64,000 nt of DNA, taken from Parcubacteria bacterium C7867-007 (lineage in GTDB: Bacteria > Patescibacteriota > Minisyncoccia > Phycocordibacterales > Phycocordibacteraceae). Below are positions 11,264-49,116 of the stretch, one piece after another; the stretch's first letter is position 1; the number at the start of each line of letters is the position of its first letter. The stretch covers positions 71,059 through 135,058 of the forward strand of contig LFCQ01000003.1 in assembly GCA_001189195.1 (NCBI GenBank), given 5' to 3'. The notes below the pieces were generated by a model, which saw nothing but the letters and a program-made list of their open reading frames with translations, did not search any database and was not told where the DNA came from. The position numbers and the translations under genes are program-made.

Positions 11264-11494
11264 ATGGGTATACAAGACTTTCTGTTACGTCAGGCAATGA
11301 AGCATAAGATGAAGGATGTGCCAGAAGCACAGCGCGAACAAATAATGACGCTGGTGCAGAAGGATCCTGAACTGTTTAAAAAGATTGGCGCAGAGGTAGA
11401 GCGCCGTACCAAGGGTGGCGAGGATCAAATGAAAGCCACCATGGAAGTGATGAAGAAGTACCGCAACGAGCTTGCTGGACTCATGCAAAAATAA
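11264..11494 (+). CDS. Small charged hypothetical protein.
   Basis: 76-aa KE-rich helical ORF with a plausible start; no family recognised. Confidence 0.35.
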   Translation: MGIQDFLLRQAMKHKMKDVPEAQREQIMTLVQKDPELFKKIGAEVERRTKGGEDQMKATMEVMKKYRNELAGLMQK

Positions 11495-12354: not shown

Positions 12355-13449
12355 ATGAAGATCGGTATCGTAGGGCTTCCGAATGTTGGGAAGTCCACTC
12401 TATTTAATGCGCTCACCAAGGCGAGTGTTCCTGCAGAGAACTATCCGTTCTGCACCATAGACCCATCTGTGGGTGTAGTGGGGGTACCGGACGAACGTCT
12501 AGACAAGCTTTCAACACTATCAAACTCAGAGAAGACTATTCCTGCAGCTATTGAATTCGTTGACATAGCCGGACTCGTTCAAGGCGCTTCAACAGGTGAA
12601 GGTCTCGGGAACCAGTTCCTTTCTCATATCCGTGAAGTGGATGCCATTCTTGAAATGGTTCGCTTCTTTGATGATCCAGACGTTATCCATGTACATGGGG
12701 AGGTTGATCCTGTACGAGACATTGAGGTTATCAACCTTGAGCTTATCCTTGCAGACCAACAGAGTGTCTCTGGTCGTCGTGAGCGACTAACCGGAGATGT
12801 GCGTGCACAGAAGAAAGATGCTGTGGCAGAGGAAGCAGTTCTTGCAAAGATTGAGCAGCAACTCCTTAAGGGACTCTTTGCTCGCAGTGCTGAACTAACA
12901 CCGGAAGAAGCAAAGATCGTTAAGGGTTTGAACCTCCTCACCATGAAGCCAATCCTTTATGCACTTAATGGAAAGTCTGGCGGCCACAATCTTGATGAGC
13001 TTAATGATGGACGTTCTCGTGCTGCGTTTGAACTCATAGAGTCTCTTGGTTCAACGTACGTACAAGTGGACGCAGTGACCGAGCATGAGCTAAACGATGT
13101 TGCGGAAGAAGATAAGCATATGTTCCGTTCAGAGCTTGGAGTCTCTGTTGATGGCCTTGAGGCACTTATACGTGGTGCATACAACGCTCTTGGCCTCATC
13201 ACCTTCTTCACCACAGGACCAAAGGAGTCTCGTGCATGGACTATTCCTAATGGAGCAACTGCGCCAGAAGCAGGAGCTGCTATACATACTGATTTTAAGG
13301 ATAAGTTTATTCGTGCTGAAGTGGTGGCGTCAGACACTCTCCTTCAGGATGGATCGTGGAGTGCATCACGCGATAAGGGAAACCTTAAGACTGAAGGAAA
13401 GACATACGTGGTGAAGGATGGAGATGTGATGGTGTTTCTGCATAGTTAG
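12355..13449 (+). CDS. ychF: Redox-regulated ribosome-binding ATPase YchF (Obg family).
   Basis: MKIGIVGLPNVGKSTLFNALT with G1-G4 motifs and a TGS-like C-terminus. Confidence 0.95.
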   Translation: MKIGIVGLPNVGKSTLFNALTKASVPAENYPFCTIDPSVGVVGVPDERLDKLSTLSNSEKTIPAAIEFVDIAGLVQGASTGEGLGNQFLSHIREVDAILEMVRFFDDPDVIHVHGEVDPVRDIEVINLELILADQQSVSGRRERLTGDVRAQKKDAVAEEAVLAKIEQQLLKGLFARSAELTPEEAKIVKGLNLLTMKPILYALNGKSGGHNLDELNDGRSRAAFELIESLGSTYVQVDAVTEHELNDVAEEDKHMFRSELGVSVDGLEALIRGAYNALGLITFFTTGPKESRAWTIPNGATAPEAGAAIHTDFKDKFIRAEVVASDTLLQDGSWSASRDKGNLKTEGKTYVVKDGDVMVFLHS

Positions 13450-13450
13450 A

Positions 13451-13476
13451 AGGTTCGAATCCTAGTCTCCCAGCAG
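13451..13476 (+). repeat. tRNA 3'-half-like variant of the 30-nt repeat family (AGGTTCGAATCCTAGTCTCCCAGCAG), immediately after the ychF stop.
   Basis: GGTTCGAATCC is a canonical tRNA T-loop. The overall layout mirrors the 3' half of the tRNA-Asn in this window (GGTTCGAATCCTACCCGCGGAGCA). It shares the GGTTC...CCAGCA frame with the other copies. Confidence 0.5.
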
Positions 13477-13571
13477 TCTAGTTTAGTATCGAAGGACCCA
13501 GAGGGGTCAGATACTAGAAAGATAACTATTCCGTCATTGCATACCTGCTGAGAGCAGTATCCAGAACAAAA

Positions 13572-13600
13572 AGCCACCGGTAACTCGGTGGCTTTTTGTA
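13572..13600 (+). terminator. Rho-independent terminator downstream of ychF.
   Basis: agccaccggtaactcggtggct followed by ttttt. Confidence 0.75.
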
Positions 13601-13638
13601 TCAACGCTTCGCTTTGTCCTTTTCCCTGATTTTTAAGC

Positions 13639-13670
13639 AAAGTTCCCACGTTGTACCAACCCCCCAGCAA
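13639..13670 (+). repeat. Copy of the 30-nt repeat family (AAAGTTCCCACGTTGTACCAACCCCCCAGCAA). It forms the left boundary of a high-GC cassette.
   Basis: About 26 of 33 positions match the copy at 14155 and the array copies at 48113, 48561, 48849 and 49058. Confidence 0.7.
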
Positions 13671-13700
13671 TTGACTTTTATATATATTGTGCTATTTTAA
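13671..13700 (+). promoter_or_regulatory. Putative sigma70 promoter for the cassette gene, with a -35 of TTGACT.
   Basis: TTGACT lies directly after the repeat; an A/T-rich -10 candidate follows 16-18 nt later. The AAAGGAGG Shine-Dalgarno sits 8 nt before the ATG at 13734. Confidence 0.4.
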
Positions 13701-13733
13701 ATACGAACCAGTTCTAACAAAAAGGAGGCAGAG

Positions 13734-14099
13734 ATGCCGCATGTAATCGTTCACTTCGATCCGAAACGTGTTCTCCAGTCCGTCATCGACGAGCTCAAGC
13801 CTCCGCTTCAGCAGATCGTAGCCGATGGCCTGAGTTATACCTCGTCCGACCACAAGGACGTCCGCGTCGATCCAAAGGAGGTCTATGTTCGGCAGCAGGC
13901 GGCACACCCAACCGATGTGAATCCTGCGGCGATCGAGATCGAAATCCAGGCGGGGAAGAAGAGGGAGCGCAATCCCGAGGGCATGGTCGTGCTCATGTCC
14001 AGGAAGATCATCGAGAGCGAGATCATTCCGAAGGATATGGCCGATCTGTGCATCTGGCTCCGCTTCTCCGAAGACAACGCCTTCAAGAACATCTACTGA
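13734..14099 (+). CDS. Tautomerase-superfamily protein, 5-carboxymethyl-2-hydroxymuconate isomerase (CHMI)-like. Compositionally foreign (high GC).
   Basis: N-terminal MPHVIVHF (Pro1 after Met removal, like CHMI MPHFIMECS). About 121 aa. GC is clearly above its surroundings. Flanked by direct repeats. Confidence 0.55.
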   Translation: MPHVIVHFDPKRVLQSVIDELKPPLQQIVADGLSYTSSDHKDVRVDPKEVYVRQQAAHPTDVNPAAIEIEIQAGKKRERNPEGMVVLMSRKIIESEIIPKDMADLCIWLRFSEDNAFKNIY

Positions 14100-14120
14100 C
14101 GCTGATCGCGTCGACCGACG

Positions 14121-14149
14121 CCACCCCGGTATATGGGTGGTTTTCTTTT
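14121..14149 (+). terminator. Rho-independent terminator of the cassette gene.
   Basis: ccaccccggtatatgggtgg followed by ttttctttt. Confidence 0.75.
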
Positions 14150-14154
14150 ATATA

Positions 14155-14186
14155 AAAGTTCCCACGTCGTACCAGACAGCCAGAAA
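14155..14186 (+). repeat. Copy of the 30-nt repeat family (AAAGTTCCCACGTCGTACCAGACAGCCAGAAA). It forms the right boundary of the high-GC cassette.
   Basis: Direct repeat of 13639..13670; matches the array consensus ...CGTCGTMCCAGACNGCCAG.AAA. Confidence 0.7.
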
Positions 14187-15780: not shown

Positions 15781-18669
15781 ATGGCAAAGAACCGTTTCGA
15801 TCATACAGAAATAGAGAAGAAAGCTCAGGAGAAATGGGCTGCGCTTGATCTGCATCAAACGGATCTCACAGATACCGAGAAGGATCCATACTATCTAATG
15901 TTTGAGTTCCCGTTTCCTTCGGGAGACCTCCATATAGGGCACTGGTATGCCTTTGCCCTCACAGACATTTATGCACGGTTCCTTCGCATGGCAGGGAAGA
16001 ACGTGCTTTTCCCTGTTGGTTTTGACTCCTTTGGTCTTCCTGCCGAGAACGCCGCAATGAAGAACGGGCAACCAACGCCCGAGTGGACGTACGCCGCTAT
16101 TGAGAAGATGCGTGGCCAGATGCGTTCTATGGGAACATCGGTAGATTGGAGCAAAGAGGTTATCACCTCAGACCCCGAATACTATAAGTGGACACAGTGG
16201 TTGTTCCTTAAACTCTTTGAGCATGGTCTTGCACAACACCGAGAAGCACCTGTTAAATGGTGTCCAAAAGATGCCACCGTACTTGCCAATGAACAGGTGA
16301 TTGATGGGAAGTGTGAGCGTTGCGGTACCGATGTTGAAGAGAAACACCTCACCCAGTGGTTCCTTAAGATCACTGATTATGCAGAGCGTCTCCTCACCGA
16401 TCTTGATCCACTTCCATGGCGTGAAGATATTAAAGAATCACAGCGTGCATGGATAGGGAAGTCAGAGGGAGCAAAGCTCAAGTTCCAGGTGGTGAGTGCA
16501 AAAGACGCATCAACACCCAATGATTCCGTAGCTATAGAAGTCTTCACAACACGTCCAGACACCATCTTCGGTGTTACGTATGTCGTACTCGCTCCTGAGC
16601 ACCCACTTATCGATACCCTTGAACCAGTTATTGCCAATGGTGAAGCGGTTGCTGAGTATCGTCAAACAACCTCGCGCAAGAGTGAGCGTGAACGCTCGGA
16701 GAACAAAGATAAGACTGGTGTACTCCTTGAAGGGGTTATGGCCATTAATCCTGCAACACACAAGGAGATTCCTGTATATGTAGCGGATTACGTACTTGCT
16801 TCATACGGTACCGGTGCCGTTATGGCAGTACCTGCGCATGACGAGCGTGATTTTGTATTTGCAAAGAAGTTCAACCTTCCAATCAAATACGTTATTGATC
16901 CAGTCACGGGATCTCCACAGGAGAATCCCCAAGATAAGCAGAAGATTGTAGCTATCGTTGAGCACGACAACAAAATCCTCACCATTCACTGGAAACCTGA
17001 ACTAGGGGGTCGTTTATTTGTTGGTGGTACCGCAGAAGAAGGTGAAGATCCTGTAGTAACTGCAATGCGTGAAATTGCTGAAGAAACCGGTTATACCGAT
17101 CTTGAGCTTATTGAACGTGCTGAGGAGCAAGTACATCACGAGTACTTTGCACACTCCAAGAACAAGGCATTTATCGCGCACACCACACTCCTTCATTTCC
17201 GCTTAAAGAGTGATGCACAGCAACCAACAGCTCTTGAAGATAATGAGATTGGAAAGTTTGAAGTTGAGTGGGTGACACGTGAGCAAGCCATAAAGGAAGT
17301 GAAGGATCCACTCCATCTCTACGCATTTAATAAGTTCGCTATGGGTATGTGCTACACCGGGGACGGTACCCTTTCAAACTCGGGAACCTTCAACGGACGC
17401 GATAACCGCGAAGTGATGGGAGAAATTGTTGAAGCAGTGGGTGGTGAGGTGACGACTAACTATCGTATACGAGATTGGCTTGTATCACGTCAGCGATACT
17501 GGGGCTGTCCAATACCGATCGTCTATGACCCTGAAGGGAATCCGCATGCGGTTCCCGCAGAACATCTCCCTTGGACCCTTCCAACCGATGTTGATTCCGG
17601 TTCAGGAAAGGGAGAGTCTCCACTTAAAGCATCAAAAGAACTTCAAGCACGTGTAGAGCAGATCTTCGGAGAAGGATGGACCCCAGAATGCGACACACTC
17701 GATGTGTTCGTAGATTCTTCATGGTACTTCCTGCGATACCTTGATCCCAAGGATGAGCATGACTTCTCAGACCAGGCACTTATGAAGAAGTGGTTGCCGG
17801 TGAATCGATACTCTGGTGGTAGCGAGCACACCACCGTGCACCTTCTCTATGCCCGTTTCTTCTACAAAGCGCTCTATGACCTCGGACTCGTTCCAACCTC
17901 TGAGCCATTCTATGAGCGATACAACCGTGGACTCGTACTAGACTCCGAAGGACGCAAGATGAGCAAGCGATGGGGCAACGTGGTGAACCCCGATGACATG
18001 GTGAAGCTCTATGGAGCAGATGCGGTGCGTATGTACCTCGCATTCATGGGTCCATACAACGAAGCAGGTCATTACCCATGGAAACTCACGGGTGTGGAAG
18101 CTATGCGAAAGTTCCTAGATCGTATCGTAACCCTATCGGGTCGCCTTTCTGATGAAGAGCCGACTGAGAATACCCTTCGTGCTCTCGCAAAGGCGGCAGA
18201 CAAGGTGGGCACAGACATTGTTCGCTTTAAGTACAACACAGCGATCTCTGCTCTTATGGTGCTTGTTAATGAACTTGAAACACTCACTGCTATACCTCGT
18301 ACTGCATACAGGGAGCTCATTACGATGCTCGCACCCTTCGCACCCCATGTATCAGAGTATTTGTATGAGAACAGCCTCCTCACGAGCTCTCACGCGGTAA
18401 ATGGTGATGAAGAGAGTGAAGTACCGAAGAGCGTACACCAGCTGGAGTGGCCAGTCATAGATGAATCCCTCCTCACCACTGAAACGATCATAATGGGAGT
18501 ACAGGTAGCGGGAAAACGACGGGGAGAAGTCTCTATTAGTCCCGAAGCAACCGAAGAAGAGGCTGTTGCAGCGGCACTTGCACAGCCAGATGTCCTCAAG
18601 TTCCTAGAAGGGGGTACACCAAGCAGGATTATCTACGTTCCAGGCCGTATCCTTAACCTAATACCCTAG
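15781..18669 (+). CDS. leuS: Leucyl-tRNA synthetase carrying an inserted Nudix-hydrolase domain.
   Basis: HIGH motif (HIGHWYAFALTD), CP1 editing domain (TTRPDTIFGV...AHDERDF) and KMSKS (KMSKRWGN). About 135 extra aa at roughly nt 16895-17345 contain a perfect Nudix box GGTAEEGEDPVVTAMREIAEETGY. Confidence 0.9.
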   Translation: MAKNRFDHTEIEKKAQEKWAALDLHQTDLTDTEKDPYYLMFEFPFPSGDLHIGHWYAFALTDIYARFLRMAGKNVLFPVGFDSFGLPAENAAMKNGQPTPEWTYAAIEKMRGQMRSMGTSVDWSKEVITSDPEYYKWTQWLFLKLFEHGLAQHREAPVKWCPKDATVLANEQVIDGKCERCGTDVEEKHLTQWFLKITDYAERLLTDLDPLPWREDIKESQRAWIGKSEGAKLKFQVVSAKDASTPNDSVAIEVFTTRPDTIFGVTYVVLAPEHPLIDTLEPVIANGEAVAEYRQTTSRKSERERSENKDKTGVLLEGVMAINPATHKEIPVYVADYVLASYGTGAVMAVPAHDERDFVFAKKFNLPIKYVIDPVTGSPQENPQDKQKIVAIVEHDNKILTIHWKPELGGRLFVGGTAEEGEDPVVTAMREIAEETGYTDLELIERAEEQVHHEYFAHSKNKAFIAHTTLLHFRLKSDAQQPTALEDNEIGKFEVEWVTREQAIKEVKDPLHLYAFNKFAMGMCYTGDGTLSNSGTFNGRDNREVMGEIVEAVGGEVTTNYRIRDWLVSRQRYWGCPIPIVYDPEGNPHAVPAEHLPWTLPTDVDSGSGKGESPLKASKELQARVEQIFGEGWTPECDTLDVFVDSSWYFLRYLDPKDEHDFSDQALMKKWLPVNRYSGGSEHTTVHLLYARFFYKALYDLGLVPTSEPFYERYNRGLVLDSEGRKMSKRWGNVVNPDDMVKLYGADAVRMYLAFMGPYNEAGHYPWKLTGVEAMRKFLDRIVTLSGRLSDEEPTENTLRALAKAADKVGTDIVRFKYNTAISALMVLVNELETLTAIPRTAYRELITMLAPFAPHVSEYLYENSLLTSSHAVNGDEESEVPKSVHQLEWPVIDESLLTTETIIMGVQVAGKRRGEVSISPEATEEEAVAAALAQPDVLKFLEGGTPSRIIYVPGRILNLIP

Positions 18670-24744: not shown

Positions 24745-25497
24745 TCAGGCGATGGCCCGATGCCGGCGGCGCAGAACGCTGCCGGCGAGGCCGAAGCCCA
24801 GGATCATCATCGCCCAGGTCGCCGGCTCGGGAACCGCCACGCCGCCCGGAGGCGTGATGATGATCGGCGGATCCAGGTCGTCCTGGAGACGCGGGAAGAT
24901 CTTCACGTTGTCCAGCAGCAGAGCTTCCCCCTGGAAGCCCGAGCTCGGCATGAAGCCGGCCGGGTTCGAGGCGAAGGTCGCACGAACGTTGATCTTGGCG
25001 ATGGTGTCGAAACCGGTCGCCGTGAAAACGAACGTTTGATAGCTCCGATAGTGGAGACCCGGCAGACTGCCGTCGAGGACGACGTCGCCGTGGTTGTCGA
25101 TGACCTGGAAGTCCAGGTCGATCGGGAACGTCGCCAGCATGGAGTTCATGTTCTGCCCGAAGTCGGCAGAGAGTGCGTTGAAGTAGCTCCCGTCGGCCAT
25201 CGTTATGCTGGTGTATCCCGTCGCGAACGGCGGCGAGAGGCCGGTGCCCCGAGGAGCCCAACCGTTGCCGGGAACCACCGTGCTGCTGATGCCGCTGGTG
25301 GCGCCGATGTAGGCGACGTGGACCCCGCTGGGGCTGGTGTAGGTCGTGTTGGCCGTGAGGGGGGGTTGCGACGCGAAGTCGGCCCCAATGAGCGACTCGA
25401 TAGGTGCGCCCAAGCCCACGAAGATTGCGCCATGCGCGGGAGCGGAAAAGGCCAGAGCAAGTGCGCCGGCCACCCCGAGATTCAGAAAATGTTTCAT
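24745..25497 (-). CDS. PEP-CTERM sorting-domain secreted protein (high-GC, foreign).
   Basis: Signal peptide MKHFLNLGVAGALALAFSAPAHGA. C-terminal VPEPATWAMMILGFGLAGSVLRRRH is a PEP-CTERM/exosortase signal. GC is far above the window background. Confidence 0.75.
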   Translation of the reverse strand: MKHFLNLGVAGALALAFSAPAHGAIFVGLGAPIESLIGADFASQPPLTANTTYTSPSGVHVAYIGATSGISSTVVPGNGWAPRGTGLSPPFATGYTSITMADGSYFNALSADFGQNMNSMLATFPIDLDFQVIDNHGDVVLDGSLPGLHYRSYQTFVFTATGFDTIAKINVRATFASNPAGFMPSSGFQGEALLLDNVKIFPRLQDDLDPPIIITPPGGVAVPEPATWAMMILGFGLAGSVLRRRHRAIA

Positions 25498-25876
25498 TTC
25501 ATACCCCAGTAGTTGGATGACTCGGTACGCCGAGTATCGGCCATTCCGTCGGATTTGATCCTGAGGAAGTGAGCGTTCTAAGGGCCATTTGTGGTCCACA
25601 GAACGCTCACTTCCTTCTAAAACCATGAGTTTTAAAAGGACCCGTAACTGGTCGTATCATACTAGAGTTGACATATCTGTCAAGACGTTGTGGACAGTAG
25701 ACTTCATGAAGTTAACTTGCACAAATCAATGATTTAGGTTATAAAAACAACAGCAGTTCTTTATATATTCCTGTTTTACCGCACCCAAAAGCACTTCTGA
25801 GTCTTCTTAGGAATATTCTTGGGTACGGTAAAACAGGACATTTGTCGTTCTGGTTCCTACCACCTTTGCAAAGGGA

Positions 25877-26542
25877 ATGTATATGAAGACTTTGATGTTG
25901 GCAGCTGCGGCTGCCCTAACGCTCTCGTTCGCGGGCGTCGCCAACTCGGCGGAGCTCTTGAACGGAGTCCACTACGGCACCGGCAACGACTACACGCCCG
26001 GCAACTGGACGGTCGCCACCGGTGGTGGGATCGAAACCGGTCTGCGGGCCCACGAAGTGTTCCAGGTGGCTCCGGCACCGTCGGGCAACCTCTACACCTT
26101 CGCCCTTGGCCAGACCATCGGCTTCGACTTCTCGATCGATCCGACCTTCGGCGGCACGCCTGTGGACCTCACGAGCGCGCTGATCACGATCACGAACCTC
26201 GGCACTGGCGGCGTCGCCAGCTTCAACCCGCTGCTCCTGCCCGACAACAGCATCGCTGGCAGCATCCAGAACAGCGAGCGGCTGAGCTTTGGCTTCCTGA
26301 ACGGTTCGCCAATCTTCAACGTCGGCGACATCGACTACAACAACGCCGTGAACAGCAGCTACCGCATCAACCTGACGGTTGCGGGCGGCGGCATCCGGTC
26401 CCTGCAAAACGAGATCCTCGTCCAGCAAGGCACCGGCGCGGTTCCCGAGCCGGCGACCTGGGCGATGATGATCCTGGGCTTCGGCATGGCCGGCGCCACG
26501 CTTCGGCGGCGCCACCCCGTCGCCGTCTCGGCGCGAACCTAG
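25877..26542 (+). CDS. PEP-CTERM sorting-domain secreted protein, paralog of the divergent neighbour. The start may be 25883.
   Basis: Signal peptide MKTLMLAAAAALTLSFAGVANSA. Its C-terminal VPEPATWAMMILGFGMAGATLRRRH is nearly identical to the neighbour's. Confidence 0.75.
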   Translation: MYMKTLMLAAAAALTLSFAGVANSAELLNGVHYGTGNDYTPGNWTVATGGGIETGLRAHEVFQVAPAPSGNLYTFALGQTIGFDFSIDPTFGGTPVDLTSALITITNLGTGGVASFNPLLLPDNSIAGSIQNSERLSFGFLNGSPIFNVGDIDYNNAVNSSYRINLTVAGGGIRSLQNEILVQQGTGAVPEPATWAMMILGFGMAGATLRRRHPVAVSART

Positions 26543-26591
26543 AACGACAATCGCGAAAGACTACCCAGATAGTCTACGCATCCAACAACTG

Positions 26592-26620
26592 GCCCCCTCC
26601 GATGGAGTGGGGCTTTTCTT
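26592..26620 (+). terminator. Rho-independent terminator after the PEP-CTERM gene.
   Basis: ggccccctccgatggagtggggc followed by ttttcttt. Confidence 0.6.
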
Positions 26621-26685
26621 TATGCATATCGAATTCAAAAGGCCGGCGGAGCAATCCGTCGGCCAATCTTTTATTTGCTGGAAGA

Positions 26686-26802
26686 CTATTTAGCCTGAGC
26701 TGCCTTACGAGCCATCTTCACCGCAATACGCTTTGCGGTCTTCTGTGGATGCTTGTGTGGGCGCTTTGGGCTCACACCCTGCTTGCTCTTGTTTCGTGAC
26801 AT
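26686..26802 (-). CDS. Small, highly basic protein of 38 aa (MSRNKSKQGVSPKRPHKHPQKTAKRIAVKMARKAAQAK).
   Basis: Internal Met of ORF 26686..26985. Followed by a minus-strand hairpin plus T-run at about 26637-26670. No family recognised. Confidence 0.3.
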   Translation of the reverse strand: MSRNKSKQGVSPKRPHKHPQKTAKRIAVKMARKAAQAK

Positions 26803-31801: not shown

Positions 31802-31885
31802 TTCATAATCATACCGTACAAATTACTCGGCTTGTGGCTCAGGTCAGTGCATTTAACATTGATACTACAGTTACGTCAAGAATTG

Positions 31886-31957
31886 CTCCGCGGGTAGGAT
31901 TCGAACCTACGACCAAGTCGTTAACAGCGACCTGCTCTACCACTGAGCTACCGCGGA
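31886..31957 (-). tRNA. tRNA-Asn (anticodon GTT).
   Basis: Minus-strand sequence TCCGCGG-TA-GCTCAGTGGTAGAGC-A-GGTCG-CTGTTAA-CGACT-TGGTC-GTAGGTTCGAATCCTAC-CCGCGGA-G. It folds as a cloverleaf, 72 nt, anticodon loop C-T-GTT-A-A. CCA is not encoded. Confidence 0.85.
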
Positions 31958-32128: not shown

Positions 32129-34120
32129 ATGGCAGATGAACGATTATATGGTGCAGTGGCTGAAAAGATGTCTGCGGGCATACCTGAAGAAAACGTGCGC
32201 ACTGAACTGCATGGTAAGTGGCCTGATACAGACATTAATGGTGCACTGGCAGTATGGAAGCTAAGAAATAGTTCTTTTACTCTTTCAAAGCACGTTCCTC
32301 GCACTGAATACCATAAGCCCTTAGAAGGAAATACATTCTTTCAGTTTGCCCTTATTTTCATACTTCTCGTATCTGCTCCCGGAGCATACGGCCTTATCAC
32401 GGGAGTTGTTATTCCTGTAGCAACTAATGAGCCTATACAACAAGCATCAGTACAAGAACAGTATGACTTGCTTCGAGATGTGCCATCACTTATTCCAGTC
32501 TCTCCGCTTGGTGCAATAATTCCTAAGAAAGAACCGGCGCCTGAGCCAACTGTTGCCTATGTTCCTCCAAGCAGTACTCCTGCAAAGCCAACACCTACTC
32601 CCACACCAGTACCGGCTCCAACTCCTGTCGAAGGGACACCCCCAGCCATTTCATTCACTGCACGTTCTAAAACTATAGTGATTGGTAGTCGCGCAACCGT
32701 TGATTGGAATGCGCCTACTGCAATATCCTGCACAGGAACAGGGTTTACTACTGATAATTTCAAAAAAGGTTCTGCTCGACTAACAATTACGTCCAACATA
32801 ACGGTTAGTATTTCTTGTACCAACGCAGGAGGTACAAGTAGCCGAAGTCTAACTATTACCGCAGTACCGAAAAGTACACCCATACCGCCTGAGCCAACAC
32901 CTACTCCCACACCTGTACCTGATCCAATCCCTGTTCCAACACCCACACCAACACCTACCACAACTCCACCTGCCCCCATTCCCACACCTACTCCAACACC
33001 TACTCCAACCCCTCCGCCTGCTCCTGGCGAAGCAACAGCAGCAACCTTCGCTACAGTGTTGAAGACAGCAACTCCGGGTTCCACTATCACTATCAATCAG
33101 CCGTTCAGTTTCAATGTGGAGAACTTAAACATTCCTGCACCAGGAACAACCGTTATGTGTGGCTCAAGTGCTGCCATTAGCCCTCCACCCATGAAGTATT
33201 CAAGTTTGAATAACGTCCAAGGCGTCACATTCAAAGGGTGTAAGTTTTTGCAGAGTTTCTATGTGAATAACGCTCAAAGACTACATTTCAAGAATAATGA
33301 TTTTAGCGGTCCAGGACCACTCGAATCAGCAAAGGTTGCTCTCATTCTCAGAGTCTCCAATAATGTAACTGTTACCAACAACAAGTTCCACCACACTAAC
33401 TCGGGTATTAGTATCCAATCTACATCACACTCAATGACCATCAGTGACAATGATTTCTATGAGCTGTGGTATGACGCCATCACCGGTTCAACCAACGGAC
33501 CAATGACTATTGAGCGCAATACGTTTACCAACTTCCGTGGACCAGCACTGCACCTCGACGCCATACAGCTATATTCTGCCAACCACAGCATACCGGTTGA
33601 TCGTGTGACCGTTCGTGACAACGTATATGTTCGGGGTACTGGTACACCCGCTCAGTTCATCTTTCTAACTGATAGTGGATCAGGCTACACCAATGCTACG
33701 GTGACAGGCAACGGTGCATGGGGCGAAGGATGGTGGGGAATTGGACTGTATGGTGCATCTGATAGTCTGATCAGTAATAACTATCTTCAGGGCTCAACAG
33801 AACTGTTCCCGAGAACTCCACCTGGGCAGCAGGTCTTAATACCATGGATCAAAGCCGGTAGTCCGGGCACGAACCTTGTTATTACAGACAACCTCTTGCC
33901 AGCACCAAGTGCTGACGACTCAGGACTACGCGCTTGGCTAAGTAGTAGAGGTAATGGACGATTTCCTATCACCCTCGGGCCTGAGTATCCACACTATGCA
34001 GATGCATCGGAAACCCGAAAGCCCAGCACGTTACTTGCCTCTGTATATACAGCATCTGAATGGATCAGCACTCTTTGGAATTCAATCCTGAACCTCATCT
34101 ACTCCCTATTCAATAGATAG
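32129..34120 (+). CDS. Large surface/secreted protein: TM anchor, Pro/Thr-rich linkers and a right-handed parallel beta-helix domain.
   Basis: PTPTPTPVPAPTPV linkers (antisense ORF 32557..33096 is the GVGVG artefact). C-terminal NNxxVTNN/ISDN repeats typical of pectate-lyase-like beta-helices. The start is uncertain (32129 or a downstream Met). Confidence 0.65.
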   Translation: MADERLYGAVAEKMSAGIPEENVRTELHGKWPDTDINGALAVWKLRNSSFTLSKHVPRTEYHKPLEGNTFFQFALIFILLVSAPGAYGLITGVVIPVATNEPIQQASVQEQYDLLRDVPSLIPVSPLGAIIPKKEPAPEPTVAYVPPSSTPAKPTPTPTPVPAPTPVEGTPPAISFTARSKTIVIGSRATVDWNAPTAISCTGTGFTTDNFKKGSARLTITSNITVSISCTNAGGTSSRSLTITAVPKSTPIPPEPTPTPTPVPDPIPVPTPTPTPTTTPPAPIPTPTPTPTPTPPPAPGEATAATFATVLKTATPGSTITINQPFSFNVENLNIPAPGTTVMCGSSAAISPPPMKYSSLNNVQGVTFKGCKFLQSFYVNNAQRLHFKNNDFSGPGPLESAKVALILRVSNNVTVTNNKFHHTNSGISIQSTSHSMTISDNDFYELWYDAITGSTNGPMTIERNTFTNFRGPALHLDAIQLYSANHSIPVDRVTVRDNVYVRGTGTPAQFIFLTDSGSGYTNATVTGNGAWGEGWWGIGLYGASDSLISNNYLQGSTELFPRTPPGQQVLIPWIKAGSPGTNLVITDNLLPAPSADDSGLRAWLSSRGNGRFPITLGPEYPHYADASETRKPSTLLASVYTASEWISTLWNSILNLIYSLFNR

Positions 34121-44094: not shown

Positions 44095-45213
44095 TTGATT
44101 TATCAACTGTCTATGGCCGCAAAAAGCACCAAGAAAGCAGCACCTCAGAAGAAGACCGCCAGCAAGGCGGCTTCAAAGACGTCTACGGTGAAGCTCTCGT
44201 TCGACAGCACCGTGCTGGTAAAAAAGCTTCTTGCTGAAGTACCAGAGCGTGCCCGTGAGGTGCTGGTATACCGCTTTGGTCTTGGGGCCAGTGCAGACCG
44301 TGAGACACTTGAAGCTATTGGCGAACGCTGGAGCATCACGCGTGAGCGTGTACGCCAGATTGAGGCTGCTGGCCTAGACGCAATTCGCTCTTCTAAGGCG
44401 TTCAAGGATGCGGGAGCTGCATTCGACGATCTTAGCAATCACGTGCAGTCACTTGGCGCCATTGTTGAGGAAGATATCCTGCTCAAGGGACTTGCTGCTG
44501 ACGAAAAGGCACGTAATCGTTTCCGCTTCCTTCTCGTTGTAGGGAGTGCATTCTTCCGTGAACGTGAGACCGATGAGTTCTATGCTCGTTGGCACGTTGA
44601 TCATGCAACCGCACAGCTCGTGCACAAGGCCCTCACCCGCCTATACGCACAACTTTCAGATACTCAGGTACTTGCTGAGGGTGAAATGATGGATCGTTTC
44701 CTCGACGAACTTAAGGACATCAATGATGCATACCGAAACGAAGAGGTACTTAAGCGTTGGCTTTCTCTTTCGAAGACTATCTCTTCAAACCCTCTCGCTG
44801 AGTGGGGTCGTGCAGAAGCACCCGCTATCCGCACCAAGGGTATTCGTGACTACGCATACCTCGTAATCAAGCGTTCTGGTGCACCTATGCACTTCTCTGA
44901 TGTTGCAAAGTCTATTAGCCAGATGTTTGCAAAGGAAGCACATGTTGCAACCACTCATAACGAGCTGATCAAGGATGCTCGCTTCGTTCTCGTCGGTCGT
45001 GGCCTCTACGCACTATCTGAGTGGGGATACCAGCCGGGAGTTGTACGCGATGTTATTAAGACCGTACTTAAGAAAGAAGGCCCCCTTACGCGTGAACGCG
45101 TGATGGAAGAAGTGAAGAAGGTTCGATACGTGAAGGACAACACCATTCTTGTGAACCTTAACGATCCGCGATACTTCAAGCGCAATAAGAACGGTACCTA
45201 TACCGTAGCGTAA
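44095..45213 (+). CDS. Sigma-70 region-4 HTH fused to a C-terminal HARE-HTH domain.
   Basis: N-terminal VLVYRFGLGASADRETLEAIGERWSITRERVRQIEAAGL (sigma70_r4). C-terminal GAPMHFSDVAKSI...NELIKDARFVLVGRGLYALSEWGY (HARE-HTH pattern). The start may be the Met at 44113. Confidence 0.6.
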   Translation: MIYQLSMAAKSTKKAAPQKKTASKAASKTSTVKLSFDSTVLVKKLLAEVPERAREVLVYRFGLGASADRETLEAIGERWSITRERVRQIEAAGLDAIRSSKAFKDAGAAFDDLSNHVQSLGAIVEEDILLKGLAADEKARNRFRFLLVVGSAFFRERETDEFYARWHVDHATAQLVHKALTRLYAQLSDTQVLAEGEMMDRFLDELKDINDAYRNEEVLKRWLSLSKTISSNPLAEWGRAEAPAIRTKGIRDYAYLVIKRSGAPMHFSDVAKSISQMFAKEAHVATTHNELIKDARFVLVGRGLYALSEWGYQPGVVRDVIKTVLKKEGPLTRERVMEEVKKVRYVKDNTILVNLNDPRYFKRNKNGTYTVA

Positions 45214-45279: not shown

Positions 45280-46650
45280 ATGAACCCATCGGATCTTCCG
45301 TTGATGAAGCTGATAAAGAAGACGCACGGAAATCTTGCAGGCAAGGGTCACTTTATTGATTGGGAACCTATCGCATGGACCTTTGGAATCTTGAACGTTC
45401 TGTTTATCTTTCTTGATCTTGGGCAAGCACTACGCAACTTTGAGTTCCTTCTCTTCTTCGCACCCCTCTGGCTTCCCGCAATAACTATTTATGCTGCAGC
45501 CAATCGTGTGGTGCAGTATCGTCGTGCAAAGTTCCTCGCAAAACAGAAATACGTATTGCTGGAACTAAAACTTCCTCGAGACACTAAGAAAACACCTCTT
45601 GCCATGGAGCTCTTCTTCTCCAACATGCACTTTGGTCCTGGAGAGTCCACAAACTATAAGGTTTATAAGCTGGGTAACATCCGACCATGGTGGTCATTTG
45701 AAATCGTGTCTCTCGGTGGACAGGTGCATTTCTATATATGGACCCGTGAGGCACATCGTCGCGGTATTGAAAGCTATCTCTATTCTCAGTATCCAGACAT
45801 GGAAATCATTGAGGCACCGGACTATAGCCTTATAACTGATCCCTCAGATGATGATCACAGTCTCTTTGGTGAAGAGTTTGTAAAATCTATTCCTGATGAG
45901 AAGGGTAGTCCAGATCCCTATCCGATAAAAACATATATTGAATACGGCTTGGACAAACCAGGAACAAAGCCAGAGGAGCAAATTGATCCACTTGCGCAGG
46001 TGATTGAGCTCCTTGGCTCACTGGGTCCGAAAGAACAATTCTGGATACAGATTATTATTCGCCAATCCAAGAAGGAGAAGTACGGAGAAGACTGGAAGAA
46101 GGTTGGGCTTTCAGAAATAGCAAAGATCCGTGAAGCAACAAGGCAGAAAGGCTCGTATGTTGATCCAGCAACCGGCAAGAAGGTTGAAACGGACGGCTTC
46201 CCGAACCCAACCAAGGGCCAACTTGAAACGATTGCGGACATTGAACGCAATATTAATAAGGCAGGCTTTGATGTGGGTATCCGCACCATATACTCAGGAC
46301 CAAAGGATGCGTATCAAGGATTTATGGCAAGCTTTGTTCTTGCGCTTTGGAAACCATTCGCTAATGAAACAGGGGCATCAATAAAACAAACAGGATCATA
46401 CTCTGCAGGGTTTAATGATTATCCCTGGGAGGATCCAAAGCGACTTGCGCATGACTTCGTTGAGAGGAAGATCGTGAAGTTGTATCGTCGTCGTGCGTAC
46501 TTTAATCAACCGTATGTTGGTCCCTGGTCCATTATGAGTAGCGAGGAGTTGGCAACACTCTTCCATGTACCATCGAGTACCATCAACACACCGGGGCTCC
46601 CACGCATGCAGTCTTCAACCACAAGCGCACCATCAAATCTTCCTGTGTAG
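45280..46650 (+). CDS. Large hypothetical protein with an N-terminal TM segment.
   Basis: 456 aa; 2 TM near the N-terminus, then a soluble domain. No family recognised. Confidence 0.5.
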   Translation: MNPSDLPLMKLIKKTHGNLAGKGHFIDWEPIAWTFGILNVLFIFLDLGQALRNFEFLLFFAPLWLPAITIYAAANRVVQYRRAKFLAKQKYVLLELKLPRDTKKTPLAMELFFSNMHFGPGESTNYKVYKLGNIRPWWSFEIVSLGGQVHFYIWTREAHRRGIESYLYSQYPDMEIIEAPDYSLITDPSDDDHSLFGEEFVKSIPDEKGSPDPYPIKTYIEYGLDKPGTKPEEQIDPLAQVIELLGSLGPKEQFWIQIIIRQSKKEKYGEDWKKVGLSEIAKIREATRQKGSYVDPATGKKVETDGFPNPTKGQLETIADIERNINKAGFDVGIRTIYSGPKDAYQGFMASFVLALWKPFANETGASIKQTGSYSAGFNDYPWEDPKRLAHDFVERKIVKLYRRRAYFNQPYVGPWSIMSSEELATLFHVPSSTINTPGLPRMQSSTTSAPSNLPV

Positions 46651-46651
46651 C

Positions 46652-47668
46652 ATGAGTATGCAAGAACAAATGCGAGTGCGTGCAGTACTGGTTCGCGCTC
46701 ATATTGACTCCCTTCTCAGAAGAACACCTAAAGCATATCTAGCAATACTCGCAGGGATGTTCATGGTGATATTCGTTCCGCTTTCAATTCTCTTTGTACC
46801 GTCATTCCAGTTTCCAAAAGGAGCATTGATTTCAATTCCTGCAAATAGTACCAGTGAAGAAATAGCAGAGCTGCTTGAGGATCAATACGTCATACGTAGT
46901 GCATTCCAGTTCCGTGTGTATACCCGACTCACGGGTGAAGACCGTGCTCTGCAATCGGGTATCTACGTGTTTGATCAGACACTGGGACTTGCGAGTATTG
47001 CACACCGTATTGCAAACGGGGAACACGGCATAGAAGAAACACGTGTCACCCTCACTGAGGGTATGACCAATCAAGACATGGCACGCACTCTTGCCGCTAC
47101 AGTTCCTGGTTTCGATACAAAGGAATTTCTTAAACACGCATCAACCAGCCAGGGGTATTTATTCCCTGATACGTACTTCATTCTCCCTGGCACTACTCCA
47201 GAAGAGATGGTTATGCGTTTGCGCGAGCACTTTGATACAAAAGTATCAACAATCCAAACGGAAATAGATGATTCAGGCAAGTCGCTTGATGCACTGGTGA
47301 CACTCGCATCAATACTTGAACGCGAAGCTCAGGGCATTGAAGATATGCGCATGGTTGCAGGTATTCTATACAATCGCCTACGCATAGATATGCCCCTGCA
47401 AGTGGATGCAGTATTTGGATACATACATGGAGAAAACGGATATACCCCAACCGCAGCAGATCTTGCAAGTGATTCTCCATACAATACGTATCGTGTGAAA
47501 GGCCTTCCTCCTAGCCCTATAGCTAATCCTGGGCTTGATGCACTTCGTGCAGCGGCAACCCCTACAAAATCTACGTATCTGTATTATTTAACAGGCAAGG
47601 ATGGCAAGATGCGCTACGCACGAACATTTGAAGAACATAAGCGCAACCGGGAGTTGTATTTAGATTAG
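46652..47668 (+). CDS. mltG: Second MltG/YceG-family endolytic transglycosylase.
   Basis: LASILEREAQG and YRVKGLPPSPIANPG motifs, N-terminal TM. Start taken at the Met just after the upstream stop. Confidence 0.85.
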   Translation: MSMQEQMRVRAVLVRAHIDSLLRRTPKAYLAILAGMFMVIFVPLSILFVPSFQFPKGALISIPANSTSEEIAELLEDQYVIRSAFQFRVYTRLTGEDRALQSGIYVFDQTLGLASIAHRIANGEHGIEETRVTLTEGMTNQDMARTLAATVPGFDTKEFLKHASTSQGYLFPDTYFILPGTTPEEMVMRLREHFDTKVSTIQTEIDDSGKSLDALVTLASILEREAQGIEDMRMVAGILYNRLRIDMPLQVDAVFGYIHGENGYTPTAADLASDSPYNTYRVKGLPPSPIANPGLDALRAAATPTKSTYLYYLTGKDGKMRYARTFEEHKRNRELYLD

Positions 47669-47693
47669 GTTCGATCCCTAGTCTGCCAGCAAA
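47667..47693 (+). repeat. tRNA 3'-half-like variant of the 30-nt repeat family (AGGTTCGATCCCTAGTCTGCCAGCAAA), overlapping the mltG stop codon.
   Basis: GGTTCGATCC T-loop-like start; TCTGCCAGCAAA is identical to the end of the array copies. Confidence 0.5.
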
Positions 47694-47716
47694 TCTTGCG
47701 TGCTAGCATACACAAC

Positions 47717-48112
47717 ATGGAACGAAGGCTTTCACTATCACTGAAACTGCTCGCTCTCTTCTTTTTCTGGTATACAGTTGTTTTTATTCTGTCAGTTCTG
47801 CCGTTGCTTGGTATTGGTCTCCCTTCGCTAATACAGCCGTCGTTCAGGGGTGTTGCATACGTATGGGATTTCGAACTATTCTTTACTGTCATCTATTTTG
47901 TTTGGGGAATCTATCTATGGAAAGCGTCCCGCACTCCTCAACAGCACAAGCTTTTTATTGATTTTACCCTTTGGGCAACTTTCGCGCATATTCTCGCTAT
48001 GTTTGCGGTTGGATTCATAAGGACGGAAGATTTTGGTCACCTAGTCATCGATGGAGTAGCCCTAGCAATACCTTTAGCACTTGTGACTATTTTTAGGTAT
48101 AGGCACGGATAA
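47717..48112 (+). CDS. Integral membrane protein, about 4 TM.
   Basis: Hydrophobic helices. The ORF-track start is 47696; the Met at 47717 is preferred. Confidence 0.5.
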   Translation: MERRLSLSLKLLALFFFWYTVVFILSVLPLLGIGLPSLIQPSFRGVAYVWDFELFFTVIYFVWGIYLWKASRTPQQHKLFIDFTLWATFAHILAMFAVGFIRTEDFGHLVIDGVALAIPLALVTIFRYRHG

Positions 48113-48141
48113 AGGTTCCAACATCGTCGCAGACTGCCAGC
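48113..48141 (+). repeat. Array repeat copy A (AGGTTCCAACATCGTCGCAGACTGCCAGC), directly after the stop of the membrane-protein gene.
   Basis: One of four near-identical copies at 48113, 48561, 48849 and 49058. Confidence 0.8.
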
Positions 48142-48142
48142 G

Positions 48143-48179
48143 ACAAAAGCAAAAGTCGCCCGATGGAATTCGGGCGACC
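48143..48179 (-). terminator. Minus-strand rho-independent terminator of array unit 3.
   Basis: Hairpin gtcgcccgaattccatcgggcgac followed on the minus strand by ttttgcttttg. Confidence 0.7.
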
Positions 48180-48206
48180 ACAAACAGGAAGTCCAGATCA
48201 GCTGGT

Positions 48207-48509
48207 TTACACAGCAATCTGTTGCGGAATGATCTGCACCCCGTTCCGCTGAGCAGGAATGTGGGCAAGGTCGGCAGGATCTTCGTACTGAACGACGATG
48301 ACCCATCCATGGTCATCGAGACGAAGTCCACCCCATTTTGTGAGTTGAAGAGGAAGAATCTCGAACAGGCGTGCCTGCACAACCTCCGCTACCTCATACG
48401 GGATGGGTTCAGGAAGAGAGATGGGTTCTCGCCTCCTGATGGCGACATGCACGGGAATTGAGAGCAAGGCGGCGAGCAATAGGATGTGCCAAGGTTCCAA
48501 TTGACCCAT
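48207..48509 (-). CDS. Small membrane-anchored protein, 100 aa, encoded inside repeat-array unit 3.
   Basis: ATG with a GGAGG Shine-Dalgarno 7 nt upstream. N-terminal TM WHILLLAALLSIPVHVAI, then a soluble domain. The ORF track starts it at an upstream TTG (48521). Confidence 0.5.
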   Translation of the reverse strand: MGQLEPWHILLLAALLSIPVHVAIRRREPISLPEPIPYEVAEVVQARLFEILPLQLTKWGGLRLDDHGWVIVVQYEDPADLAHIPAQRNGVQIIPQQIAV

Positions 48510-48540
48510 AGGGGCCTCCAATGATTGTTTCTAGGTGCAC

Positions 48541-48569
48541 TATATACGCAGTATGAACAAAGTCCCAAC
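48541..48569 (-). promoter_or_regulatory. Putative minus-strand promoter of array unit 3 (TTGGGA-16-TATATA).
   Basis: The -35 element overlaps the end of repeat copy B; the -10 is TATATA at 48546..48541. Confidence 0.35.
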
Positions 48570-48588
48570 ATCGTCCCAGACTGCCAGC
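48561..48588 (+). repeat. Array repeat copy B (AGTCCCAACATCGTCCCAGACTGCCAGC).
   Basis: 27 of 28 identical to the consensus. Confidence 0.8.
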
Positions 48589-48595
48589 AAATAAA

Positions 48596-48627
48596 TTCAT
48601 AAAAGAAAAACGCATCCGAAGATGCGT
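48596..48627 (-). terminator. Minus-strand rho-independent terminator of array unit 2.
   Basis: Hairpin acgcatcttcggatgcgt followed on the minus strand by ttttcttttatg. Confidence 0.75.
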
Positions 48628-48810
48628 CTGAAAACGGAGAAGAGCAGGAAGATGTGCTCTCCTGATGGAACCTTAAACAGACAACCGCGCCTACGGGCCT
48701 CCACTTAGGTGGGGAGGAACCAAGGCCATCTTTGTGACCTCAGGTCTGATCTCAGGTGCAACGGGCCATGAACCCCGTTGGGCAAGTTGGCATCTTCTCT
48801 TCCGCCTATC
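48600..48810 (-). ncRNA. Candidate non-coding RNA (array unit 2), about 210 nt, with its own promoter and terminator.
   Basis: Several stable hairpins (caacggg/cccgttg; ggaga.../...tctcc). No ORF longer than 13 aa with an RBS. Bounded by a promoter and an intrinsic terminator. Confidence 0.4.
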
Positions 48811-48817
48811 CGTTAGC

Positions 48818-48845
48818 ACCTTACCAAATCAGGTGTGCCGGTCAA
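48818..48845 (-). promoter_or_regulatory. Putative minus-strand sigma70 promoter of array unit 2 (TTGACC-16-TAAGGT).
   Basis: -35 at 48845..48840 and -10 at 48823..48818, immediately downstream (minus sense) of repeat copy C. Confidence 0.4.
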
Positions 48846-48848
48846 TCT

Positions 48849-48876
48849 GGTTCCAACATCGTCCCAGACGGCCAGC
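48849..48876 (+). repeat. Array repeat copy C (GGTTCCAACATCGTCCCAGACGGCCAGC).
   Basis: Near-identical to copies A, B and D. Confidence 0.8.
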
Positions 48877-48878
48877 TA

Positions 48879-48919
48879 TAAATAAAGAAAACCCCTTCCA
48901 TGACATTGGTCGGGGTTTT
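48879..48919 (-). terminator. Minus-strand rho-independent terminator of array unit 1.
   Basis: Hairpin aaaacccc...ggggtttt followed on the minus strand by ctttatttat. Confidence 0.65.
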
Positions 48920-49016
48920 GCACTGGATTTTGGTACACCAGTGTTCTCTCTTCGTGTCTTGTCAGGACAGTGCCAATGGGGGCATTGGAACGAGAGGCCA
49001 CATTAACTACAGTGGT
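48880..49016 (-). ncRNA. Candidate non-coding RNA (array unit 1), about 135 nt.
   Basis: Driven by a near-consensus promoter. Contains hairpins (ccaatgcccccattgg). No plausible ORF. Ends at an intrinsic terminator. Confidence 0.4.
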
Positions 49017-49022
49017 AAATCC

Positions 49023-49051
49023 ATCATAACAGCACAGATACTGTTTGTCAA
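49023..49051 (-). promoter_or_regulatory. Minus-strand sigma70 promoter of array unit 1 (TTGACA-17-TATGAT).
   Basis: -35 TTGACA at 49051..49046, 17-nt spacer, -10 TATGAT at 49028..49023, immediately after repeat copy D. Confidence 0.55.
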
Positions 49052-49057
49052 TAGTCC

Positions 49058-49085
49058 GGTTCCAACATTGTCCCAGACTGTCAGG
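49058..49085 (+). repeat. Array repeat copy D (GGTTCCAACATTGTCCCAGACTGTCAGG).
   Basis: 25 of 28 match the consensus. Confidence 0.75.
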
Positions 49086-49116
49086 AATAGAAAAACGCCA
49101 ACACAGAGTGAAGGCG
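49086..49116 (-). terminator. Minus-strand terminator-like hairpin of array unit 0.
   Basis: Hairpin aagcgccttcactctgtgttggcgtt followed on the minus strand by tttttctatt. The stem is imperfect. Confidence 0.45.

Follow-up and report, generated by a model that had tools for sequence, protein, structure and literature searches.

Why does a repeat resembling the 3' end of a tRNA lie at the stop codons of two protein-coding genes? The question is raised by a 64,000-nt stretch of the genome of Parcubacteria bacterium C7867-007 (contig LFCQ01000003.1; the window, hereafter), a Parcubacterium (Paceibacterota), in which ychF and the YceG/MltG-family gene mltG-2 both end at such a repeat. A first-pass annotation, made from the letters of the window, had connected these two short copies with six longer ones and had read the whole family as a tRNA-3'-end-like attachment (att) core of integrative elements. 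We found that the short copies, designated S, are genuine 3' halves of tRNA-Gln (T-loop, T-stem, 3' strand of the acceptor and discriminator) that have become orphaned, and that each probably heads, as proximal attachment site, an array of small cassettes built by a large serine recombinase (LSR), the longer repeats, designated LONG, forming the site at each cassette end.

The short copy AGGTTCGAATCCTAGTCTCCCAGCAG occupies positions 13451-13476 and begins 1 nt past the ychF stop codon TAG (13447-13449), and the short copy AGGTTCGATCCCTAGTCTGCCAGCAAA, at 47667-47693, overlaps the stop codon TAG of mltG-2 (47666-47668), both exactly as annotated. The window encodes two YceG/MltG paralogs, at 1746-2813 on the minus strand and at 46565-47668 on the plus strand, with only the second joined to a tRNA-derived site. 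The pattern GGTTYGAWYCCTAGTCTSCCRGC was scanned over 185,579 species genomes (one genome per species), with tRNA genes called by ARAGORN. The scan gave 121 matches, 107 of which were the 3' ends of called tRNA-Gln genes (73 CTG, 34 TTG) from many phyla; the others were 8 matches cut by locus edges and 6 orphans, four of these in close relatives of the window organism. The string 13452-13474 is identical at 23 of 23 positions to 78 real tRNA-Gln 3' ends, and the string 47668-47690 matches tRNA-Gln 3' ends at 22 of 23 positions, differing by 1 nt from 10 real ones, a likeness far above chance. The U1-A72/G73 layout of the short copies also pointed to tRNA-Gln rather than to the tRNA-Asn of the window (31885-31957); because the likeness to tRNA-Asn stops at the T-arm (14 nt), tRNA-Gln is the better match. 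The layout of a tRNA 3' half that had been proposed is thus real, with tRNA-Gln, and not a generic or Asn-like tRNA, as its source. Both copies have the properties of displaced tRNA 3' fragments, namely a sequence nearly identical to the 3' portion of a genuine tRNA and variable DNA starting at the fragment, and neither has those of a functional tRNA: ARAGORN and Rfam called only the tRNA-Asn in the window, with nothing at E ≤ 1 at 13452 or 47668, no 5' half is present, and the folding z-scores of the two sites (-0.86 and +0.60) indicate no tRNA-like fold.

The long repeat, GGTTCCAACATCGTCCCAGACTGCCAGC, is present in six copies on the plus strand only, bringing the family to the eight members previously counted, all on the plus strand. 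Together they form two arrays with the layouts SLL after ychF and SLLLL after mltG-2 (L, a LONG site; Table 1). The first LONG site of the second array does follow a stop codon directly, as had been noticed: the TAA of the DUF6632 open reading frame (ORF), at 48110-48112, falls within the A-rich stretch that extends the site on its 5' side.

Table 1 Genes, sites and cassettes of the two arrays in the window. Positions are those of the window; PWM, position weight matrix score; L-numbers designate the loci used for comparison.
Feature	Position	Strand	Evidence and remarks
ychF (YchF GTPase), 3' end adjoining array 1	12355..13449	+	Pfam YchF-GTPase_C, MMR_HSR1; 96% identical to YchF of Parcubacteria bacterium C7867-008
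S1, orphan tRNA-Gln 3' half (T-loop to discriminator), head of array 1, putative attB-type half-site	13452..13474	+	23/23 against real tRNA-Gln 3' ends; no tRNA call
Remnant of the native flank 3' of a tRNA-Gln(TTG) gene; hairpin and T-run at ~13571-13600	13475..13635	+	Alignment A1 to the real tRNA-Gln flank in L028, L055
LONG, degenerate (array 1)	13636..13670	+	PWM 20.8
Cassette with 121-aa ORF 13734-14099 (no Pfam match), promoter-like site 13671-13698, terminator 14120-14141	13671..14151	+
LONG closing array 1, followed by the conserved CPDase gene 14205-14741	14152..14186	+	PWM 39.2; synteny with L002 resumes at 14331
mltG-2 (YceG family); stop TAG 47666-47668 is the T-stem TAG of the tRNA-derived site	46565..47668	+	Pfam YceG, E=2.5e-74; same junction in C7867-008 locus L029
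S2, orphan tRNA-Gln 3' half, head of array 2, putative attB-type half-site; with the preceding TA, 47666-47690	47668..47690	+	22/23 against real tRNA-Gln 3' ends
Cassette 1: DUF6632 membrane protein ORF 47696-48112, array-oriented, no space for a promoter of its own	47691..48108	+
LONG, core 48114-48141	48109..48143	+	PWM 49.7
Cassette 2: 104-aa ORF 48207-48521, own terminator 48179-48154, promoter-like site 48568-48539 extending into the neighbouring LONG	48144..48555	-
LONG, core 48561-48588	48556..48590	+	PWM 50.9
Cassette 3: no ORF ≥50 aa; minus-strand terminator 48629-48608	48591..48843	-
LONG, core 48849-48876	48844..48878	+	PWM 49.4
Cassette 4: no ORF ≥50 aa; strong minus-strand promoter-like TTGACA-17-TATGAT 49051-49023; hairpin ~48887-48925	48879..49052	-
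Last LONG of array 2, core 49058-49085	49053..49087	+	PWM 36.3

LONG is a site of 35 nt with sharp borders, A.AAAGGTTCCAACATCGTCCCAGAC-N-(G/C)CCAGCAA. Its logo, A.AAA(G/A)GTTCCAACATCGTCCCAGAC-N-(G/C)CCAGCAA, has zero information on either flank and is also valid in 117 copies found without the search seed. The LONG sites of the window scored 20.8-50.9 with the PWM, compared to a maximum of 5.2 over 20 shuffles of the window; a ninth match at 57678, inside alaS, scored below 12 and was set aside as a chance match. The LONG core is identical at 28 of 28 positions between genomes whose YchF proteins are only 88-96% identical, and the LONG sites showed no significant fold on either strand (z-scores -1.27 to +0.79). 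The 20-mer GTTCCAACATCGTCCCAGAC is also found exactly inside a GC-rich coding-gene family located by a ParB-like gene, at about nine single-site metagenome loci that are unrelated to the arrays and were treated as false positives (L143, L161, L171, L177, L196, L200, L213, L215, L223).

The first-pass annotation had proposed that the corresponding gene ends of relatives be compared for the motif and for island content. The same tRNA-Gln fragment lies 2-6 nt past the ychF stop in L003, L004 and L005 (YchF 88-89% identical); behind it come a different small gene, in reverse orientation, and a long repeat, in this order. The closest sequenced relative, C7867-008, has at least three arrays: its ychF locus (L002) is without the site, its mltG-2 locus (L029) has the identical junction of gene, TAG and fragment, another fragment lies 6 nt after a tRNA-Pro gene (L027), and a further array stands behind an intact tRNA-Gln gene (L123). 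Homology of the window to these relatives ends at the last base of the fragment, at 13474/13475 against L003 and L004 and at 47701 against L029 (79% over 3.7 kb upstream), and resumes only in the conserved genes past each array, the DNA between differing completely across genomes. The 125 nt of the window past the ychF fragment show homology to the native flank that a genuine tRNA-Gln(TTG) gene has in a different Paceibacterota genome (L028). The ychF-site copy is a truncated tRNA-Gln gene that retains the flank downstream of it.

The position at stop codons may be explained at least in part by the fragment itself. The native tRNA has cTA in front of S (T-stem CTAGG); the TA is kept in the orphans and makes a TAG that is the stop codon of the upstream gene. 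This is the case for MltG (the window, L029 and L225), alanyl-tRNA synthetase (L183), an ABC-F ATPase (L220), an M23 peptidase (L166) and uracil-DNA glycosylase (L126, L163). The ychF gene has its own stop codon 1-6 nt before S, with a spacer that differs between lineages. S probably adjoins stop codons because the tRNA-derived TAG either is the stop codon of the host gene or lies within a few nucleotides of it. Selection likely keeps the site, and in genomes as compact as these the dead 5' part of the tRNA would be deleted until the neighbouring gene reaches it; promoterless cassettes in the same orientation may gain from read-through.

What is the content of the arrays? The 20-mer was also used to scan metagenomes, which gave at least 120 contigs with the arrays, and about 300 LONG and 31 S sites were obtained across the genome loci and the metagenome matches listed. 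In all of the approximately 30 arrays having an S site, S comes first (SL, SLL, up to SLLLLLLL), and sites are never found on both strands of one locus. Intact tRNA-Gln genes contain seven of the S sites; about 20 other S sites are orphans. The stretches from one site to the next, 205 in all, have a median length of 487 nt (10-90%: 292-894) and contents that are all different. The arrays have the organization of integrons, with single-gene cassettes bounded by sites and one distinct head site. Among 195 unique cassettes, 109 have an ORF in the orientation of the array, starting a median of 30 nt past the site and stopping mostly 0-4 nt ahead of the following one; in 71 the ORF is reversed and flanked on both sides by about 60 nt, which leaves room for a promoter and terminator of its own; and 15 have no ORF of at least 50 aa. 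The products are small enzymes and many unknowns, with serine hydrolase, HAD, histidine phosphatase, methyltransferase, NUDIX, glyoxalase, GNAT, SnoaL, OmdA, HNH and DUF6632 genes among those recognised. The ORF-less cassettes of the window (48591-48843 and 48879-49052) are candidates for small RNAs or micro-peptides. Some reverse cassettes with different genes have in common about 30 nt (CTRGACAGAAC..GTTGCAKAAA) directly upstream of LONG (11469-11498 in L003, 11535-11564 in L004, and also in L027, L029 and L123), which may be a shared promoter or operator.

Which enzyme could act on these sites? Clustering all ORFs of the array loci revealed an LSR with Resolvase, Recombinase and Zn_ribbon_recom domains, whose closest solved structures are the SPbeta and TP901-1 integrases and for which more than 2,500 homologs were found. 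In L205, the LSR gene immediately adjoins S: the tRNA-derived CTAGTCTCCCAGCAT, read on the opposite strand, supplies its last codons and stop (ATG CTG GGA GAC TAG), the stop codon being the T-stem CTA of S. The unit, of 6.3 kb, also contains a rolling-circle Rep gene and an XRE regulator, has a LONG-like site at its end and is followed by more cassettes. As an independent test, five LSR homologs were selected by protein similarity and length of the available contig only, and all five overlap a tRNA 3' end or S (three Gln, one Lys, one Ser). The three Gln-type homologs (64, 69 and 59% identity) are followed by 7, 14 and 8 LONG sites, respectively, in the orientation of the tRNA. The tRNA-Lys and tRNA-Ser homologs (52 and 47% identity) belong to LSR and Rep elements of 3.7 kb and 5.0 kb with a single site at the far end, AGGAAAGTTCCAACATCGTCCCA + TAGGGCGGACCA for tRNA-Lys and AAAAAGGTTCCAACTTCATCCCA + CACTCTCCGCCA for tRNA-Ser. 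Both have the same left arm (AAAGTTCCAACATCGTCCCA), continued by the 3' end of the tRNA that adjoins the LSR. The left-arm PWM gave 0 hits in 1.44 Mb of unrelated loci. The same overlap of LSR and tRNA-Gln was seen in L080, L087 and L113, which had been fetched for the tRNA pattern, so that the combination of Resolvase, Recombinase and zinc-ribbon domains beside an att site is observed in these three loci, in L205 and in L245-L249, and not in the window. Four of the six intact LSR elements examined also have a rolling-circle Rep gene.

The connection of the repeat family with a tRNA-3'-end att core at gene 3' ends is supported, among other observations, by a site-specific recombinase physically linked to it in relatives; the earlier description as a classic target of integrative elements holds for the att site at a tRNA end, the linked recombinase being an LSR and not a tyrosine integrase. 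Two further features of these loci were observed. The stop and the last 3-4 codons of the LSR gene are encoded by the tRNA 3' end (L205, 108-120; L245-L249, ~11449-11461), and since the C-terminus lies within it, the integrated and excised forms must encode different C-termini. In several loci (L205, 8-120; L132; L134/L224; L125; L070; L084), a further, orphan tRNA-Gln 3' half lies within 16-100 nt behind an intact tRNA-Gln gene, and its sequence type is sometimes not that of the end of the gene; these second halves look like displaced fragments of earlier exchanges.

Serine-integrase attP and attB half-sites have the same motifs and differ in the position of the distal zinc-ribbon (ZD) motif, which attP has 5 bp farther from the crossover (Rutherford et al. 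2013, PMC3783163). The alignment of LONG with S showed 22 identities out of 25 and a net gain of 5 nt, with a score of 29.5 compared to -3.5 ± 4.4 for shuffled sequences (0 of 5000 as good). Compared to S, LONG thus has a net 5 nt more separating the distal GGTTC from the proximal acceptor strand TCCC(T)AG.CTGCCAGC, which is the shift of the distal motif expected between attP and attB half-sites of a serine integrase. Because GGTTC sits 5 nt further out in LONG, S, made of the tRNA T-arm and acceptor strand, looks attB-type and LONG attP-type. The two short copies had been taken for variants of the repeat; they do belong to the same family, each as the single, attB-type head site of an array, and the long repeats are a distinct, attP-type site. 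The occurrence of one distal motif (here GGTTC) and one proximal motif in both site types is shared with the serine-integrase sites of that study. In contrast to these, only the left half-site is recognisable here, and its arm may exceed the 25/20 bp of the LI integrase.

Natural junction variants were consistent with exchange at the sites. L132 and L205 are 100% identical over the tRNA-Gln gene, 16 nt and S, and diverge past the last base of S, L205 continuing into the LSR element and L132 into a small cassette. In L199 and L234, 107 identical cassette bases are found after LONG and after S, respectively. Where L129 has two LONG sites and a 929-nt cassette between them, L203, with flanks 96% identical, has a single site, and L158 and L218 have a common cassette and LONG up to position 24, then differ. 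These variants would fit a site-specific exchange between LONG positions 22 and 30. The variable positions 22-23 would fit the geometry of a central dinucleotide, but S (TC) and LONG (TG or AG) differ there within single arrays.

We propose, from these observations, that a family of LSRs carried on small elements of 3.5-6 kb would integrate at the 3' ends of tRNA genes, the T-arm and acceptor strand serving as an attB-type half-site (S) and the incoming DNA bearing an attP-type half-site (LONG) with the same distal GGTTC and proximal motif, 5 bp wider apart. After integration, S would remain beside the tRNA and LONG would mark the opposite end, and repeated integration would give the order S-cassette-LONG-cassette-LONG. 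Most cassettes are single genes without a recombinase and would presumably be moved in trans, as in integrons and in recombinase-less elements of the staphylococcal cassette chromosome (SCC). The window has two such arrays, after ychF and mltG-2, neither of them with a recombinase. SCC-type elements lacking a recombinase do exist, as the cassettes do here.

Several observations weigh against this proposal. No recombinase is encoded in the window (Pfam, window ORFs tested; motif search) or beside the arrays of C7867-008. The sites are one-sided, with nothing conserved right of +30 and a right half conserved for 8 nt or fewer, and the dyad symmetry of serine-integrase sites is absent, no inverted copy of the arm being found right of S or LONG. 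The conserved left arm measures 27-33 nt depending on where the crossover is placed, which is longer than the canonical arm; the crossover itself is inconsistent among the natural variants, between LONG positions 22 and 30, and position 23 is usually C in S and G in LONG. The indel between L129 and L203 could also be a homology-driven deletion between 28-nt direct repeats. All-versus-all comparison of 40 and then 205 cassettes found no cassette body in two arrays, duplicates of the same genome aside, and mobility of single cassettes is for this reason not directly seen. The LONG repeat had 0 hits in viral contigs, no LSR contig showed the terminal overlap of a circular form, and the seeds used to collect the loci came from the motif itself.

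The lack of cassette bodies common to different arrays would also be expected if the arrays were fossil scars, LSR-Rep elements having repeatedly inserted at tRNA-Gln and decayed to a cargo gene and an attR, with cassettes that were never mobile and arrays that are inert in the window. The LSR unit is moreover always proximal to S (L205, L245-L247), as if newcomers push older units outward, a pattern also reported for tycheposons (10.1101/2020.12.28.424599), and the sites of the first window array are decaying, as their PWM scores indicate. We nevertheless consider this explanation unlikely. Decay is difficult to reconcile with a LONG core that remains invariant across genomes while its flanks hold no information, and with cassettes that are tightly packed single genes whose stop codons are often 0-4 nt away from the site that follows; many independent clean decays would be required for arrays with as many as 14 sites, and a canonical LSR is unable to re-use the same attB after a first integration.

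Tyrosine-integrase islands of the tycheposon or prophage type, of which the repeats would be displaced tRNA fragments, are a very improbable source. Fragments of tRNA 3' ends around islands are the hallmark of these integrases (Islander, PMC4383910), and duplicated partial copies of tRNA-Gln are present in L070, L084 and L125. However, no Phage_integrase domain was detected by Pfam in the window ORFs tested, nor any tyrosine recombinase by motif search in ~620 kb of array loci, the recombinase against the sites is of the serine type in every case, and the internal sites are a derivative expanded by 5 nt, not tRNA fragments. It is just as hard to believe that the 35-nt motif is a transcriptional signal (promoter, operator or terminator-associated) of accessory genes in regions that are merely variable. 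Sigma-70-like promoters and terminators do lie beside many sites, and some minus-oriented cassettes share the upstream element mentioned above; yet the orientation of the sites agrees with that of the array and the tRNA rather than with that of the genes (109 cassette ORFs in the same and 71 in the opposite orientation), S is always first, synteny breaks and indels fall exactly at the sites, and the proximal part of the motif co-varies with the tRNA targeted by the adjacent LSR. The least credible is a role in RNA, in which transcripts of ychF and mltG would bear a tRNA-like 3' module that is processed by RNase P or RNase Z, as suggested earlier for ychF, or by the CCA-adding enzyme. A T-arm-like hairpin is possible at 47667 with upstream bases, but the 5' acceptor strand is absent, the bases upstream of GG are not conserved at orthologous loci, and neither ARAGORN, Rfam nor folding gave any signal.

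Other known motifs were compared with the repeats and rejected. By eye, a sigma-54 promoter has the wrong GG/GC spacing, a promoter for an extracytoplasmic function (ECF) sigma factor has the wrong order of elements, a dif/Xer site agrees in its length of 28 nt but the arms are not palindromic here, and the Alphaproteobacterial SOS box GTTC-N7-GTTC shows a loose resemblance only. Clustered regularly interspaced short palindromic repeats (CRISPR), miniature inverted-repeat transposable elements (MITE) and repetitive extragenic palindromic (REP) sequences were discarded given a spacing of 209-1354 nt, no conserved flanks and no palindrome.

Arrays built by an LSR, as we propose, have their closest counterparts in three known systems. 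Like integrons, they have one distinct head site beside the recombinase gene, mostly single-gene cassettes of a few hundred nucleotides each with a conserved end site, a huge diversity of cassettes mostly of unknown function, and ORFs that are for the most part co-oriented and tightly packed; integrons also have arrays without a recombinase (clusters of attC sites lacking integron-integrases, CALINs), as are both arrays of the window. Unlike integrons, where the recombinase is the tyrosine recombinase IntI, the enzyme here is an LSR and no IntI was found in the window ORFs tested or, by motif search, in the array loci; the sites are 23-35 nt without a hairpin, whereas attC is a folded single strand of 57-141 nt; the head site is the end of a tRNA gene; and about 40% of the cassettes are reversed, with their own promoter and terminator. 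SCCmec and the Enterococcus cassette chromosome (ECC), mobilized by CcrAB, share the use of an LSR, an attB in the 3' end of a conserved gene, direct-repeat flanks and multiple attR sites in composite islands (PMC6222049), but SCC and ECC are multi-gene elements of 20-80 kb, in contrast to a median cassette of ~0.5 kb here, and the target of SCC is rlmH instead of a tRNA or tRNA fragment, with att sites that are dyad-symmetric only in SCC. Tycheposons of Prochlorococcus (10.1101/2020.12.28.424599) are likewise site-specific elements at tRNA genes, in which successive insertions push older ones into the island, with scattered partial tRNA copies, some replication genes and a minority of large serine recombinases; they differ in being multi-gene elements between partial tRNAs with mostly tyrosine recombinases, and no dedicated non-tRNA cassette-end site or single-gene array was described for them.

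Other features of the window were noted. A protein with a sigma-70 region 4 and a HARE-HTH domain (44095-45213) is conserved upstream of mltG-2 in C7867-008. The leucyl-tRNA synthetase (15781-18669) has a NUDIX domain inserted after the editing domain, an architecture also present in L001-L004. A divergent pair of paralogous genes at 24745-26799 has an 86-nt inverted repeat (83% complementary) and a PEP-CTERM motif in the first gene, in a segment (24-28 kb) with a GC content of 53.5% compared to 48%; these features are unusual for a Parcubacterium and the region may be acquired DNA. In-frame periodic repeats are found at 3146-3313 (21-nt, acidic; ORF 2877-3461) and at 32586-33033 (Pro/Thr-rich; beta-helix protein 32129-34120).

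No published account of such cassette arrays or of the repeat sequence was found in the literature. Patescibacteria have very small genomes whose gene gain and loss are little understood, and recombinases, tRNAs and cassettes go unmentioned in a recent survey that covered horizontal transfer in 125 genomes of the group (PMC12455944). We tentatively suggest, as a possibility that goes beyond the attachment sites themselves, that the Paceibacterota LSR at the tRNA-Gln 3' end is a counterpart of the integron, which would capture promoterless or self-expressed single-gene cassettes with a one-sided attP-type site and stack them behind an attB-type site regenerated by the reaction; head sites that have spread to housekeeping genes and lie at their stop codons (ychF, mltG, alaS, ung and others) would then give several capture platforms per genome of 0.5-1 Mb. 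If this is true, the arrays would be a major route of accessory-gene turnover in the phylum, and an integron-like platform would exist that is based on a serine instead of a tyrosine recombinase. The one-sided site, with an invariant arm joined to the 3' end of the targeted tRNA (Gln, Lys or Ser), is of interest for understanding site recognition by serine integrases and, possibly, for integrase tools that can be retargeted. The orphan tRNA-Gln 3' halves and the 35-nt site are, in addition, easy markers of the variable regions in these genomes.

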